Part shown: positions 7,411 through 14,923 of the stretch, piece by piece
Layout: each line of letters opens with the position of its first letter
How positions within the stretch are numbered: position 1 is the first letter of the stretch
Origin: a virus
Length of the DNA: 19,658 bases
Strand: one strand, 5' to 3'
UHGV virus genome: UHGV-0171543
Notes under the pieces: model-generated
Databases searched by the model: none
What the model was told of the DNA's origin: nothing
The model's input: only the letters and a program-made list of their open reading frames with translations
Translations under genes and position numbers: made by a program

Positions 7411-7620
<210 letters not shown>

Positions 7621-7708: not shown

Positions 7709-8425
<717 letters not shown>

Positions 8426-8432
8426 CACGTAA

Positions 8433-8870
8433 ATGATTAAAGAACGTATTTCTTATATCATTCCGATTGCGATGGATGAAGGCAACCCCGTAACTCCAGT
8501 TCTTATCTATGAAATGGATAAAGACTCCCATGAAGTGGATCTGTCATTTGGCGCTTTTTTTATCGGCCTTAAGGCTACAAAAAAATATTCCATAGGCATT
8601 GAGGTTTTCAATGCTCAAGAAATACCGATACCAATTGACACAAAACTGTACTCCAACCATAAGTTTTTTACGGTAGCAGAAGCCAACGATGGAGAAACCA
8701 TCGTATCAACTTCTATGAGAATTAACTTCCCAAGGGTGAAAATTATCAAGCCTGGGATATTCGAAGTTAGAGCATCACTGGTTAATCCTGAGAAAGGCGA
8801 AGTAATTGATGTAAAAAGTTCGTTTTTTGACGTGAAGATAACAGGATCAGTTCGCGATGAGTTTAGATAA
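8433..8870 (+). CDS. Hypothetical protein A of a two-gene cassette at the rexA position (unknown function)
   Basis: 145-aa ORF starting 7 nt after the cI stop, same strand. No TM segment and no motif I recognise. Confidence 0.7.
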   Translation: MIKERISYIIPIAMDEGNPVTPVLIYEMDKDSHEVDLSFGAFFIGLKATKKYSIGIEVFNAQEIPIPIDTKLYSNHKFFTVAEANDGETIVSTSMRINFPRVKIIKPGIFEVRASLVNPEKGEVIDVKSSFFDVKITGSVRDEFR

Positions 8871-9228
8871 CAAGGTTGCTCAGCTTCGTCCAAATCAAAA
8901 CATATCTCGCCCAATTGGACACTATTACACTGATGATGCATACTCACGGCATGGTGGAGGAAACGGCGGAGGTAACATGCTTGAGGCTAGAGTTGCAAAG
9001 CTAGAGTCTGATGTTGAATACATCAAGCGCGATCTCGCTGAGGTAAAGTCAGATATAAAATCTGTTGATTCTCGTCTGTCAGGTATTGAGACAAGCATTA
9101 GCTCAGCAAAAACCACCATTAAGGCATCTGCGGTCGTTGTCAGTTTCGTGTTCGCATTTTGCGCCTACATTTTTGGAAGTTATGTTTCCAAAATCCTTGA
9201 TGCCTTAAACGGACTCATTCTTAAGTAA
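8857..9228 (+). CDS. Hypothetical membrane protein B of the cassette: Gly-rich linker, amphipathic coiled coil, single C-terminal TM helix
   Basis: 123-aa ORF overlapping gene A by 14 nt. An alternative start at ATG 8977 is preceded by GGAGGT and would give 84 aa. Heptad-like segment LEARVAKLESDVEYIKRDLAEVKSDIKSV, then hydrophobic AVVVSFVFAFCAYIFGSYV near the C-terminus. Confidence 0.7.
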   Translation: MSLDNKVAQLRPNQNISRPIGHYYTDDAYSRHGGGNGGGNMLEARVAKLESDVEYIKRDLAEVKSDIKSVDSRLSGIETSISSAKTTIKASAVVVSFVFAFCAYIFGSYVSKILDALNGLILK

Positions 9229-9235
9229 CACACAA

Positions 9236-9261
9236 CCCGGCCTCAGTGCCGGGTTTTCTTT
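9236..9261 (+). terminator. Rho-independent terminator closing the cI-cassette operon
   Basis: CCCGGC-CTCAGT-GCCGGG stem-loop followed by TTTTCTTT, 8 nt after the gene B stop. Confidence 0.6.
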
Positions 9262-9413
9262 GCCTCTCGATCCCCCTTCCCAACAACACATAACCATTTG
9301 TATTTATTGGAAAACTAATAGATAAAACTTGCTAAACAGTGCAATTCTGATCCCTCACCTACCTAACAATTCACCCCCTGCAAAAAATAAATCCATATAA
9401 AAAACATACAGAT

Positions 9414-9476
9414 AACCATCTGCGGTGATAAATTATCTCTGGCGGTGTTGACATAAATACCACTAGCGGTGATACT
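9414..9476 (+). promoter_or_regulatory. oL3-oL2-oL1 operators and pL promoter
   Basis: AACCATCTGCGGTGATA (9414..9430), TATCTCTGGCGGTGTTG (9434..9450), TACCACTAGCGGTGATA (9458..9474). pL -35 TTGACA (9448..9453) and -10 GATACT (9471..9476) with 17-bp spacing. Near-identical to lambda pL as recalled. Confidence 0.85.
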
Positions 9477-9720: not shown

Positions 9721-10029
9721 ATGACGGTAATCGTGTACGGAAAATCAACATTTGCAGGAAATGCCAAAACTCGCCGTCATGAGCGGCGCAGAAAGCTGGC
9801 TATCGAGCGTGATGCTATATGCAACATCATCGATTCGATCTTCGGTACAGACAGTGATGAACCTTTTCAGGAAAAACCGAGAAAGCGTTTAAATCTTTCT
9901 GAAAAAGCAATATCACTCAGCAACATTCGTAACCAAAATACCGATGAATGCAGTGGAAGTATTTGTCTTCCAAATGTAGCTCTTTACGCGGCAGGCTACA
10001 GGAAATCAAAACAACTGACGGCGAGATGA
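9721..10029 (+). CDS. N: N-family transcription antiterminator, P22 gene 24 type (arginine-rich motif)
   Basis: 102-aa ORF, first gene after pL, with GAGGA RBS. N-terminal GNAKTRRHERRRKLAIER is the P22 N arginine-rich boxB-binding peptide as recalled. Not lambda N. Confidence 0.85.
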   Translation: MTVIVYGKSTFAGNAKTRRHERRRKLAIERDAICNIIDSIFGTDSDEPFQEKPRKRLNLSEKAISLSNIRNQNTDECSGSICLPNVALYAAGYRKSKQLTAR

Positions 10030-10044
10030 TAAATCATTTGCTAA

Positions 10045-10626
10045 TTACTTGTTTTTGCCATGCTTATCCTGAGCGATAAGTTCATCCATAAGACTGTCTT
10101 TCTTCCCAGCAAACCTAATGTAGCACTCATTTCTATAGCGTTCCGGGATAACAAAACGGTCGATTTCAGGATATCCAGTAGCAGAAGGTATCCGAATAAG
10201 AAGCCCTTTTTCGAGCAATGAGATTGCTTCAGGGCTTCCCTTTTCTGTCTTTAGCTGGTTATTCGCGGCTACAGCGAATGCCAAATACGCTCTTTCTCCA
10301 AGAGTTAACGAATCAAACAAATCTTGCACATATTTTTCTTCTTTAGATTTGCGCTTCTGAGCAGCGGATACCTCAATTCTTTCAGTCACAGCGTGATAAG
10401 CGGAATTAACAACACCGTTAAGCACATAGCTAACGCAGAACAACAGGATGTAATACATCCAATAATGAGGAAGGATTTCTGGATTATGCAGGTTTATCCA
10501 TTCTTTTACGCTTACCGGCATAACAATAATCAATATGATCAGGATGATTAGCATATGAATCAACTGTTTAAGTGTCATTCCTTGCAGGAAAAAATGCATT
10601 AGTTCCTGCCACCATGAGTTGTTCAT
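10045..10626 (-). CDS. sieB: Superinfection exclusion protein B
   Basis: 193-aa ORF opposite in orientation to N, with an N-terminal hydrophobic segment (LIHMLIILIILIIVMPV). Matches lambda SieB as recalled. Confidence 0.8.
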   Translation of the reverse strand: MNNSWWQELMHFFLQGMTLKQLIHMLIILIILIIVMPVSVKEWINLHNPEILPHYWMYYILLFCVSYVLNGVVNSAYHAVTERIEVSAAQKRKSKEEKYVQDLFDSLTLGERAYLAFAVAANNQLKTEKGSPEAISLLEKGLLIRIPSATGYPEIDRFVIPERYRNECYIRFAGKKDSLMDELIAQDKHGKNK

Positions 10627-10769: not shown

Positions 10770-10856
10770 ATGGAAGAAGAATTTGAAGAGTTCGAAGAGC
10801 ATCCTCAGGATGTGATGGAACAATACCAGGACTATCCTTATGACTACGACTATTGA
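10770..10856 (+). CDS. Small acidic ORF (28 aa) overlapping the ral start
   Basis: ATG at 10770 preceded by AAGGTGA. Hand translation MEEEFEEFEEHPQDVMEQYQDYPYDYDY. Its stop overlaps the first codons of ral, which has no obvious SD of its own. Confidence 0.3.
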   Translation: MEEEFEEFEEHPQDVMEQYQDYPYDYDY

Positions 10857-11040
10857 TAAAAATCAATGGTGTGGACAATTCAAGCGATGCAATGGATGCA
10901 AGCTGCAATCGGAATGCATGGTTAAGCCTGAAGAAATGTTTCCTGTAATGGAAGATGGGAAATATGTCGATAAATGGGCAATACGAACTACGGCAATGAT
11001 TGCCAGAGAACTTGGTAAACAGAACAACAAGGCTGCCTGA
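10840..11040 (+). CDS. ral: Restriction alleviation protein Ral
   Basis: 66-aa ORF MTTTIDKNQWCGQFKRCNGCKLQSECMVKPEEMF..., matching lambda Ral as recalled. Confidence 0.85.
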   Translation: MTTTIDKNQWCGQFKRCNGCKLQSECMVKPEEMFPVMEDGKYVDKWAIRTTAMIARELGKQNNKAA

Positions 11041-11100: not shown

Positions 11101-11550
11101 ATGGAAGAACAAGCAAACAAGATTCTCGTAGAACTACTGCAAAAAGCCAGCAATGGAATAGACACGGCTGTTTCATTCAGCCAGGCGCAGATTCCTGATG
11201 TTGTTCATCAGTTGCTGCTATGGAATATGGTTGACAGTCTGATTAAAACATTAATAGCCATTCTAACAATCCCACTGGTTTTCTGGTTTATGAAGAAGCA
11301 GTGCCGAAGAGTTGAGACAGGTAAAATCGGTGATGAAGGATATTCATGGGAGAAGGGAAATCCCAAATACAGGCCGACAATGGTTTGGGATAGCAAAGGT
11401 GATATTAATCTTCTTATCATGCCATTAGTTGGAGTTTTGGCTCTGTGGGGGATTTTTATTATTAGTGCAGTAACCAATATGACATGGTTAAAAATTTTGC
11501 TGGCTCCAAAGCTTTACCTTATCGAATATGCAGCATCATTGGTTAAGTAA
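11101..11550 (+). CDS. Hypothetical inner-membrane protein (two predicted TM helices)
   Basis: 149-aa ORF with AAGGGGA RBS. Hydrophobic segments LIKTLIAILTIPLVFWFM and INLLIMPLVGVLALWGIFIISAV. No lambda counterpart recalled at this position. Confidence 0.6.
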   Translation: MEEQANKILVELLQKASNGIDTAVSFSQAQIPDVVHQLLLWNMVDSLIKTLIAILTIPLVFWFMKKQCRRVETGKIGDEGYSWEKGNPKYRPTMVWDSKGDINLLIMPLVGVLALWGIFIISAVTNMTWLKILLAPKLYLIEYAASLVK

Positions 11551-11737: not shown

Positions 11738-12706
11738 ATGAGTGAAGTAACAGATTTAGTTGTTATTGAAAAAGCAAATGCAATGACTGTATTTCAGTCT
11801 GCCGACCAGATTGAAGAAATCCTTCAAAAGGTTGAACGTGAAGTTATGTCCTTTGTGCCTGATATCACAACGGCAAAGGGCAGAAAGGAGATCGCTTCTC
11901 TGGCGTATAAAGTTGCGCAGACGAAAACATATCTCGATGGTCTTGGCAAAGACCTTGTTGCTGAACTGAAGGAAATTCCAAAGCTAATTGATGCCAACCG
12001 CAAGACAGTGCGCGATCGCCTTGATGAACTGAAAGCCAAGGCACGCCAGCCTCTTACTGATTATGAAGAGGAACAGGCGCGGATTAAAGCCGAAGAAGAA
12101 GCTAAGGCAGCAGCTGAAGCTCTCGCAAAGCAAATTGAGTCTGACCATGAAATAGCGATTTTGATGGATCGCGAATTTGACCGCCAAAGAGAAGAGGCAA
12201 GACTCAAAGCGGAGCAGGAAAAGCGAGAGCATGAAGAACGCTTAAAAAGAGAAGCTGAAGAGAAAGCCAGAGCAGAAGCCGAAGCAAAGGCAAAAGCCGA
12301 AATTGAAGCAGCAGCAAGGCGAGAAGCAGAAGCTAAGGCCGCAGCGGAACGTGCAGAGCGTGAACGCATTGAAGCCGAGCAACGAGCACAGCGCGAAGCA
12401 AAAGAGGCAGCAGAACGAGCTGAAAGAGAAAAGCAGGCGGCAATTGAAGCAGAACGCCGAAAAGCACAGGAGGAGGCTGAACGAATCCGGCGCGAGGCTG
12501 AAGCAAAAGAGCAAGCCAGAATAGCAGAAGAAAAAAGAATCAAGGACGAAGAAGAGCGTAGAGCAAAGGATAAAGCTCACCGGAAAGAAGTAAATAACAA
12601 AATACTTGCTGACCTTATCAAGGTTGGCGCATCAGAAGATGTTGCTAAAAATATCATAACAGCCATCGTAAAAGGCGAAGTATTCGCAACAAAAATAACC
12701 TACTAA
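11738..12706 (+). CDS. Hypothetical protein with a long K/E/A/R-rich low-complexity coiled-coil core between N- and C-terminal domains
   Basis: 322-aa ORF with GGAGG RBS. The central region of roughly 170 aa is an EAEAKAKAE/AERAERE-type charged repeat; the flanks are ordinary sequence. The repetitive DNA creates spurious ORFs on the opposite strand. Confidence 0.65.
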   Translation: MSEVTDLVVIEKANAMTVFQSADQIEEILQKVEREVMSFVPDITTAKGRKEIASLAYKVAQTKTYLDGLGKDLVAELKEIPKLIDANRKTVRDRLDELKAKARQPLTDYEEEQARIKAEEEAKAAAEALAKQIESDHEIAILMDREFDRQREEARLKAEQEKREHEERLKREAEEKARAEAEAKAKAEIEAAARREAEAKAAAERAERERIEAEQRAQREAKEAAERAEREKQAAIEAERRKAQEEAERIRREAEAKEQARIAEEKRIKDEEERRAKDKAHRKEVNNKILADLIKVGASEDVAKNIITAIVKGEVFATKITY

Positions 12707-14443: not shown

Positions 14444-14923
14444 ATGAAAATCTGCTCAAGATGCCATCAACAGAAGGAAGAAAGGGACTTTCAAATCAGA
14501 AGAGCATCCAGAGATGGATTAACTGCCGCTTGCCGGGCTTGCCTGGCTGAATACGACAAAGAGCGCGCGGGATTGCCACATCGAGTATCAGCAAGGAGAG
14601 AATATCAATCATCGGAACGCGGCAGAGAACGGTGTAACGCAGCCAAAAAGCGGTTCATTCAGAGCAACCCATGGAAAAGAAAAGCCCACATCATCGTGGG
14701 TAATTTTTTGCGCGACGGTAAGCTAATCCGACCACCACAATGTGAGTGCTGCGGATCAGAATGTAAACCACAGGCGCACCACTGCGACTACAGCAAACCA
14801 ACCGATGTGATGTGGCTCTGCAAGTCATGTCATGTCGAGTGGCACAAACATAACAAACCTATCTACCCAGACGAGGAGCCAGTAACTCTCCCCTTCCCTC
14901 GTCACGCTATTCACGCAATTTAA
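14444..14923 (+). CDS. Putative HNH endonuclease with N-terminal zinc ribbon
   Basis: 159-aa ORF. N-terminal CSRCH...CRAC and C-terminal CECCGSEC...AHHCDYSKPTDVMWLCKSCHVEWH fit an HNH (His-Asn-His) nuclease motif with Cys ligands. Confidence 0.6.
   Translation: MKICSRCHQQKEERDFQIRRASRDGLTAACRACLAEYDKERAGLPHRVSARREYQSSERGRERCNAAKKRFIQSNPWKRKAHIIVGNFLRDGKLIRPPQCECCGSECKPQAHHCDYSKPTDVMWLCKSCHVEWHKHNKPIYPDEEPVTLPFPRHAIHAI

Follow-up and report, generated by a model that had tools for sequence, protein, structure and literature searches.

The window analysed here, a 19,658-nucleotide (nt) stretch of the virus genome UHGV-0171543, is a lambdoid or P22-like mosaic prophage whose + strand corresponds to the leftward direction of lambda. 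Directly behind its cI repressor gene lie two overlapping open reading frames (ORFs), A and B, predicted to encode a soluble protein and a small membrane protein. This pair belongs to a broad family of prophage cassettes in which a coiled-coil protein with a C-terminal transmembrane (TM) segment (B type) is preceded by one of several exchangeable partners, and in which a promoter-like site, a Shine-Dalgarno (SD)-like motif and a start codon recur inside the B gene. The nested signals predict that a form of B of 83 amino acids (aa), B-short, is made from its own transcript. We tentatively suggest that the pair may be a lysogen-expressed phage-exclusion (abortive-infection) module, made up of a sensor and a membrane effector, that is analogous and not homologous to RexAB of lambda. 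The genes were already known as database hypotheticals, their RexAB-like placement has been on record since 2008 and the slot they occupy is an established home of exclusion genes. Within the literature searched, the broad family of partner plus B-type protein, its alternative sensors and the conserved nested promoter, ribosome-binding site and start appear to be new.

The B-type family and its partners

A search with a profile of B recovered 22 loci from one-genome-per-species contigs and 129 relatives in IMG/VR, 80 of which were included; counts for the B-type family refer to 117 loci in all. Hosts include Enterobacterales (Serratia, Symbiopectobacterium), Vibrio, Shewanella, Pseudoalteromonas, Pseudomonas, Alphaproteobacteria and Desulfobacterota, and the contexts are prophage-like. 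In 113 of 117 loci, a small partner gene on the same strand ends -50 to +6 nt from the start of B. A repressor-type gene is located no more than 700 nt upstream in 92 of 113 loci (S24 cI-like in 66, helix-turn-helix-only in 22 and Arc-like in 4), and Pfam-annotated contexts agree with this linkage.

Partners are of more than one kind. Among 72 distinct partner sequences, 49 are A-like in iterated hidden Markov model (HMM) searches, which gave no match among ~2000 other ORFs of the loci. Proteins of ~100-130 aa that bear two CxxC motifs (Zn-ribbon-like) and whose Pfam matches are all sub-threshold account for a further 15, and ~8 are other small proteins. In the Zn-ribbon-like partners (our loci L002:3578-3961, L034:2681-3001, L009:4639-4971, L010:4676-4990 and others), the CxxC motifs are ~50 residues apart; such partners were found in Enterobacter phage ENT1 and in Klebsiella, Vibrio, Shewanella, Pseudoalteromonas and Desulfobacterota loci. 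Exchange also extends to parts of B. The same A type and B N-terminus are joined to at least four different C-terminal TM modules, and the same B core is paired with A-like, Zn-ribbon or other partners. Conservation across the B family is highest where the coiled coil begins, at the motif (M)LEARVAKLESDVEYIKRD.

The window cassette is a regular member of this family. Its B has the defining features, namely a Gly hinge, a coiled coil that begins with the conserved (M)LEARVAKLESDV and a TM segment at the C-terminus (alignment; HMM matches, 117 loci). The family layout is shared as well, with a 14-nt overlap between A and B, which are in different frames, and a 7-nt gap between the cI stop codon (TAA) and A. 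All nested family signals are predicted in it, including a promoter-like site, an SD-like motif and a start codon where the coiled coil begins.

Orthologous pairs are present in Salmonella phages epsilon34 (gp45/gp44) and g341c (gp40/gp39), and also in NM-3. Relative to the window, A of epsilon34 shows 73% identity along the whole protein and B shows 63% along its first 65 residues, but the C-terminal half of gp44 is another coiled-coil/TM module than that in B. The pairs of epsilon34 and g341c have the same A/B overlap and are directly behind the repressor, but that repressor is a different one. Similarity at the DNA level to epsilon34 (75%) begins in the C-terminal half of the repressor gene and continues into the cassette (window 8017-8425; L001:3060-3468). 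The cargo may thus move as a unit with the C-terminal domain of the repressor, the recombination joint being inside cI. The pair is present in 16 of 5426 complete Escherichia coli genomes, including those of enteropathogenic E. coli (EPEC) E2348/69 and porcine enterotoxigenic E. coli (ETEC) UMNF18. Genes 44 and 45 of epsilon34 were predicted to be expressed from the prophage, and their placement was compared with that of rexA/rexB (Villafane et al. 2008; PMC2629481). A first-pass annotation of the window had called the cassette unrecognised, which is too strong given this comparison.

A sister cassette occupies the same slot in phage HK544. The product of its second gene (183 aa) aligns with the B profile over the hinge and everything C-terminal to it (HMM 3e-14, hhalign 96%), and the gene has an identical counterpart in 93 of 5426 complete E. 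coli genomes. The partner in this cassette is an unrelated protein of 93 aa, and the B-type protein has an N-terminal extension of 77 residues. Proteins of the sister cassette, and of it only, have been detected by proteomics in O157:H7 cultures, where the B-type protein was associated with a high-Mr fraction in which membrane proteins are enriched; ECs2991 has been identified in a rumen-fluid proteome. These data support expression of the family without deliberate induction and an association with membranes, and for the window cassette they are not direct evidence.

Signals nested inside the B gene

A start-type codon is found at the internal position of B in 58 of 60 distinct contexts (52 ATG, 4 TTG and 2 GTG; these contexts, like those in the counts that follow, are not mutually independent). 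One of the four TTG codons, in locus L006, comes directly after an ATG. The internal start is 3-5 codons ahead of an R-V-A-K-L-E motif, and the predicted helix of the window B begins exactly at the corresponding methionine, M41. In 46 of 60 distinct contexts, a GGAGG-type motif made up by glycine codons of the hinge precedes the conserved internal start by 4-16 nt.

Promoter-like sites were sought in a segment of 50 nt, 26-76 nt upstream of the internal start, with segments of partner genes and shuffles as controls. With at least 9 matching positions among 12 as the criterion, 54% of 65 distinct B-family contexts contain such a site, versus 1.5% of control segments in partner genes and 2.2% of shuffles. 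The nested promoters comprise at least 14 different hexamer pairs. Their spacer is almost always 17 nt, and the -10 hexamer ends 29-42 nt before the start.

Both hexamers are invariant, synonymous sites included, across the window, E2348/69, epsilon34 and two Salmonella prophages. The rate of synonymous substitution (dS) is 0.37-0.64 in the promoter-bearing N-terminal stretch of B versus 1.4-1.5 in A. Over the -10 region the encoded peptide varies, yet its codons, rich in those for His, Thr, Asn, Asp and Tyr, spell CATACT, CATAAT or GATAAT, suggesting that it is the nucleotide sequence and not the peptide that is constrained there. The first-pass annotation had given the length of B as 123 or 84 aa; the longer value stands, and the shorter one is corrected to 83 aa, as the stop codon had been counted.

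Genomic setting and predicted proteins

As the annotation had described, two same-strand ORFs overlap each other, begin 7 nt after the cI stop and are followed by a terminator, pL and N (table 1). The cI gene has 91-92% nucleotide identity with those of lambda and HK97, and a lambda-type oR/PRM sequence is directly upstream. In BLASTN comparisons with lambda, HK97, HK544 and ev099, an identity of 92% ends at 8421-8425, at the end of cI, and an identity of 86-90% returns at 9233-9238. The right junction falls on the base at which the terminator stem begins, and the equivalent position in lambda is directly after rexB. The equivalent terminator is labelled "Timm" in the records of CL707 and HK244. 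Because similarity to relatives resumes at the terminator stem, Timm is assigned to the backbone and the cargo is limited to 8426-9233. The hairpin terminator that had been reported behind B is thus present and belongs to the backbone, not to the cassette. The assignment of the pair to the rexA-rexB slot holds, with junctions at the cI stop and at Timm. The gap between cI and A is too short for a promoter, and a promoter scan revealed no promoter-like site there. Given its placement exactly between the cI stop and Timm, the cargo is therefore predicted to share the transcripts of the repressor, which start at PRM in the lysogen and at PRE during establishment. The GC content is 0.38-0.44 in the cassette versus 0.41-0.46 in its flanks, without a sharp anomaly in composition, and an Rfam scan detected no RNA family in the cassette region.

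Table 1. Coordinates of the cassette, of predicted elements within it and of neighbouring features in the window.
Feature	Position	Strand	Description
cro	7411-7611	-	
cI repressor	7712-8425	+	lambda immunity type, 237 aa; HTH_3 and Peptidase_S24 domains; heads the transcript bearing the cassette
Mobile cargo (insert of the "rexAB slot")	8426-9233	+	delimited by breaks in BLASTN similarity to lambda, HK97, HK544 and ev099
ORF A	8433-8870	+	145 aa; predicted soluble all-beta protein (immunoglobulin-like sandwich); candidate sensor or regulator
ORF B (B-long)	8857-9228	+	123 aa; predicted disordered N-terminus, GGGNGGG hinge, coiled coil, C-terminal TM anchor
Predicted sigma-70 promoter in the N-terminal coding part of B	8916-8944	+	TGGACA 8916-8921, 17-nt spacer, CATACT 8939-8944; promoter scan
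GGAGG SD-like motif	8968-8972	+	from hinge glycine codons; 4 nt before the internal ATG
Predicted B-short	8977-9228	+	83 aa (M41-K123), internal ATG at 8977; coiled coil and TM anchor alone
Coiled coil of B, residues 42-88	8980-9120	+	heptad pattern from the translation
TM segment of B, A92-V110	9130-9186	+	hydrophobic stretch within the predicted continuous helix; 13-residue tail after it
Timm-type intrinsic terminator	9234-9265	+	stem 9234-9255, then T-rich tail; terminator scan and 86-90% identity to the sequence after rexB
pL promoter	9448-9476	+	TTGACA-17-GATACT
P22-type N gene	9721-10029		PF25694, E 4e-40
sieB	10045-10626	-	0.8 kb from the cassette
ral	10840-11040		

Related immunity regions carry varied cargo in this slot, as the annotation had anticipated. 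In lambda the slot holds rexA-rexB, in HK97 gp49-gp48, in HK544 the 93-aa and 183-aa pair of the sister cassette and in HK244 a pair of 144 and 206 aa. A single protein is encoded in CL707 (301 aa), ev099 (a NYN-domain protein) and PhiR5_2 (253 aa), and HK542 has two hypothetical proteins there according to its annotation alone. The slot was already established as a mosaic hotspot (PMC7067206; Degnan 2007, as cited in PMC8585504). Protein HK244_05 (L122:865-1916, with HK244_04) is a true homologue of A (hhalign 92%) that is paired with an unrelated coiled-coil/TM protein of 206 aa. The gp49/gp48 pair of HK97 (L038:1440-2344) has the same layout of a small soluble protein and a coiled-coil/TM protein, with no detectable homology. 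HK97 gp48 and HK244_04 were considered as homologues of B and rejected; matches were weak in hmmsearch (4e-4 and 1e-6) and reached just 12-18% in hhalign, and we regard both as architectural analogues. The layout of a soluble and a coiled-coil/TM protein recurs in the slot beyond the B family.

Judged from their sequences, A and B are real genes and not chance ORFs, because the ratio of nonsynonymous to synonymous rates (dN/dS) is 0.11 for A relative to two Salmonella homologues and 0.31-0.38 for the first 40 codons of B relative to Salmonella homologues, both proteins belong to PHROG families without functional annotation (A to phrog_5893, E 3e-64; B to phrog_6136, E 2e-45) and the pair is conserved in synteny. 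The structure of A is modelled as a beta-sandwich with a predicted local distance difference test score (pLDDT) of 87.7, and the protein is predicted to be cytoplasmic. Searches of Pfam and NCBIfam yielded no match for A. By sequence its family is small, with 20 clusters among 5.8 billion proteins and 19 matches among 1.84 billion representatives. The identical A sequence is found on 505 contigs and is named "hypothetical" in every one. Its closest predicted viral structures in BFVD, M1PKK7 and A0A2P1JU14 (Anoxybacillus phage A403; Foldseek E ~2e-8, TM-score ~0.67), are uncharacterised phage proteins of the size of A (134-142 aa), one of them from a phage with a Gram-positive host.

In an AlphaFold2 model of B, residues 1-40 have pLDDT values below 50 and residues 41-122 form one continuous helix. 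Hydrophobic residues at a/d positions of the coiled coil are L42, V46, L49, V53, I56, L60, V63, I67, V70, L74, I77, I81, A84 and I88. B is thus predicted to be a tail-anchored, single-pass inner-membrane protein that is mostly cytoplasmic. The combination of a soluble and a small membrane component that the annotation had proposed is borne out by these models, with a beta-sandwich for A and a C-terminal TM segment for B. Matches of B in Pfam and NCBIfam are limited to sub-threshold coiled-coil families (XhlA, FlaC and others). The score against XhlA (PF10779) is 21.6 bits, under the Pfam gathering threshold of 34.7. Among 37 relatives of B, 23 match PF10779 at E <0.01 (best 8.3e-6), and many of the 76 clusters of B homologues carry the NCBI name "hemolysin XhlA". 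Distant homology of B to XhlA is possible but unproven. The annotation had missed this likeness, as it had the nested promoter, ribosome-binding site and start in B and the ownership of the terminator by the backbone.

Other observations concern the opposite strand of the cassette and the rest of the window. A promoter-like site is located inside A (8584-8611, - strand; TTGAAA-16-AATATT with an upstream TG) and a terminator-like hairpin in the N-terminal coding part of B (8908-8921, - strand). Such sites are no more numerous in the region than expected from shuffled sequence, and an antisense RNA resembling sas of P22 in the cassette is only a speculation. Two tRNA genes (1037-1189, - strand; Rfam RF00005, 61.5 and 48.8 bits) are in the late-gene regulatory region, where the related prophage of E2348/69 likewise has tRNA-Thr and tRNA-Asn. 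The part of the early-left operon that separates ral from the recombination genes contains ORFs of 149 aa (11101-11550, + strand), with hydrophobic stretches that suggest two TM segments, and of 322 aa (11738-12706, + strand). Neither has a Pfam match, and a hypothetical gene of the same size is annotated at the matching place in E2348/69. An ORF of 159 aa (14444-14920, + strand), also without a Pfam match, is located between the genes for a single-stranded DNA-binding protein and a P22-type anti-RecBCD protein (Abc2).

Possible functions of the pair

If the pair is an exclusion module, A (or the Zn-ribbon protein in other prophages) would hold or trigger B-long by way of the N-terminal extension of B-long, which is specific to the lineage. 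When a phage infects, B would form oligomers by means of the coiled coil and perturb the inner membrane in a manner like that of XhlA or a holin, and the infection would be aborted. B-short, without the extension, would set the threshold. Alternatively, B-short could give the prophage self-immunity once transcription of cI-A-B-long stops after induction. The nested short form would be analogous to pLit-rexB of lambda and SieB/Esc of P22. Contact between A and B, damage to the membrane, the role of B-short and an anti-phage function are all steps that we infer. A defence role is plausible on sequence grounds. Features that favour a conflict system are the coupling of the cassette to several repressor types, the free exchange of cargo in the slot, the modular swapping of partners and effectors, and a fast-evolving partner and N-terminal extension beside a conserved effector core. 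For a tail-anchored coiled coil that is barely exposed outside the membrane, abortive infection by membrane perturbation is the most economical mechanism.

Several points weigh against this proposal. The literature searched reports no exclusion or abortive-infection phenotype for the pair or its relatives, and an earlier assignment is possible. No significant match was obtained in PADLOC-DB 2.0.0 for A, B, eight partners and two further B-type proteins; B had weak coiled-coil matches alone (CorA-like, 0.0047; LmuB, 0.017) and A had none. The text and supplements of DefensePredictor contain no trace of the cassette proteins. The sub-threshold likeness of B to XhlA may reflect coiled-coil composition, and the fold of A is generic and gives no pointer to what A would sense. 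Physical linkage by itself would be enough to make the N-terminus of B co-vary with the partner gene next to it. The internal promoter and start of B are predictions. GGA accounts for 30% of the Gly codons in the hinge versus 27% elsewhere in B, which is no enrichment, so the argument for an SD motif rests on its position and not on codon bias, and in the window the motif is just 4 nt from the ATG. The conserved internal methionine could be structural, as its TTG, GTG and ACG variants are each one step from ATG.

Other functions for the pair were considered, and the evidence weakens each of them. We think it unlikely that the pair acts in superinfection exclusion at the envelope, for which HK97 gp15, P22 SieA and T4 Imm are models. 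Here B, from its place in the inner membrane, would keep phage DNA from entering or block an inner-membrane receptor or channel that incoming phages use, and A would be a chaperone or cofactor. A predicted single-pass membrane protein co-expressed with the repressor would suit such a role, the sister protein is enriched in the O157:H7 lysate fraction where membrane proteins concentrate, and the prophage region already has other exclusion genes (sieB and ral), in a neighbourhood that collects such functions. However, just ~13 residues of B would be beyond the membrane, nearly the whole protein is cytoplasmic and its best-conserved part is the cytoplasmic coiled coil. The soluble partner, moreover, is swappable between two unrelated folds, which fits sensing better than the blocking of entry. 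A role in the phage's own life cycle, in which the pair modulates the lysis-lysogeny switch, induction or the timing of lysis as an XhlA-like holin accessory, likewise seems unlikely. It would account for the sub-threshold likeness of B and 23 of its 37 relatives to XhlA of the PBSX lysis module and for the tight linkage of the cassette to three repressor types, and the nested promoter would let expression change when transcription of cI stops. A role of RexA in the switch of lambda that is independent of RexB has been reported (PMC11077077). Conversely, the cassette is dispensable cargo, with close lambda-immunity phages having unrelated genes in the slot, and such free swapping is unusual for core life-cycle functions. 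It is also predicted to be transcribed with cI and not with the late lysis genes, which are located elsewhere in related prophages.

The presence of the cassette or its sister in pathogens (EPEC E2348/69, porcine ETEC UMNF18 and the Stx1 prophage of O157:H7), together with the identification of ECs2991 in rumen fluid, could point to lysogenic conversion. The pair would then alter host physiology (tolerance of envelope stress, persistence, colonisation or virulence) in a manner unrelated to phages, as with bor and lom of lambda. This is improbable in our view. The breadth of the family, from Enterobacterales to Desulfobacterota, speaks against a factor specific to a host niche, and partner swapping is more typical of conflict systems. 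We regard as very improbable an addiction (toxin-antitoxin-like) module without phage sensing, in which B is a membrane toxin and A or B-short the antidote. An overlapping two-gene operon that encodes a small membrane protein and a small soluble partner has the corresponding form, and nested long and short forms could serve as toxin and antidote, but gene order and sizes fit no described toxin-antitoxin type, no toxin-antitoxin domain was detected in Pfam or NCBIfam searches and an integrated prophage hardly needs post-segregational killing. Many toxin-antitoxin modules act in abortive infection anyway, so that this alternative overlaps with the exclusion module that we tentatively propose.

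Comparison with known systems shows both parallels and differences. Like rexAB, the cassette fills the interval from the cI stop to Timm in a backbone of the lambda-immunity type, encodes a cytoplasmic and then a membrane component, and is predicted to be co-transcribed with cI. The pLit promoter of lambda, inside rexA, expresses rexB alone, and the predicted separate promoter of B parallels it. In agreement with the annotation, neither ORF resembles its lambda counterpart. As a RexA homologue A was rejected (BLASTP E 6.4; beta-sandwich fold); RexA has 279 aa and binds DNA, whereas A is a predicted beta-sandwich of 145 aa. As a RexB homologue B was rejected too, with 20.8 bits over 49 residues across the hinge and a single C-terminal TM segment. 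RexB is a multi-pass membrane protein with four helices, in contrast to the predicted single-pass, tail-anchored coiled coil of B. XhlA of Bacillus subtilis PBSX resembles B in its small size and its layout, with a cytoplasmic coiled coil at the N-terminal end and a TM segment at the C-terminal end. XhlA is encoded in a late lysis cassette beside holin and endolysin, whereas B is in an immunity operon between cI and pL, has a soluble partner and carries an extra N-terminal extension; in the related prophage of E2348/69, holin and lysozyme are ~9 kb away from the cassette.

SieB and Esc of P22 and lambda offer a parallel for the nested form, as a prophage-expressed membrane protein with a shorter in-frame product from an internal start. 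SieB reportedly causes abortive infection, and the shorter internal-start product Esc is said to neutralise the long form, as Ranade and Poteete are understood to have found in 1993. In contrast to the pair, SieB is encoded by one gene that lacks a partner, has its TM segments at the N-terminus, is unrelated in sequence and switches between long and short forms by an antisense RNA, where B would use its nested promoter. BstA of the Salmonella prophage BTP1 occupies the same post-repressor slot as the window cassette and is highly expressed in lysogens from the cI promoter (PMC8585504; PMC7067206). It acts by abortive infection and has built-in self-immunity (PMC8585504). Unlike the cassette, BstA is one soluble protein at phage replication sites that has no membrane component and no homology to A or B, and its self-immunity comes from a DNA element, aba.

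The cassette repeats the logic of RexAB in a simpler form, with a soluble partner, a single-pass membrane effector and a predicted separate promoter for the effector. To our knowledge, what triggers RexAB and how lambda escapes from it are still unclear after more than 60 years. In the cassette, partners are swappable and the boundaries of the long and short forms are clear-cut. If the pair is a defence system, it would represent a widespread family missed by the current models of defence finders and offer a model of how nested isoforms confer self-immunity on a prophage. Otherwise, the family still marks a conserved membrane function that is expressed in lysogens. In either case, the B-type family is widespread, is present in model phages and major pathogens and has a regulatory design that can be tested.

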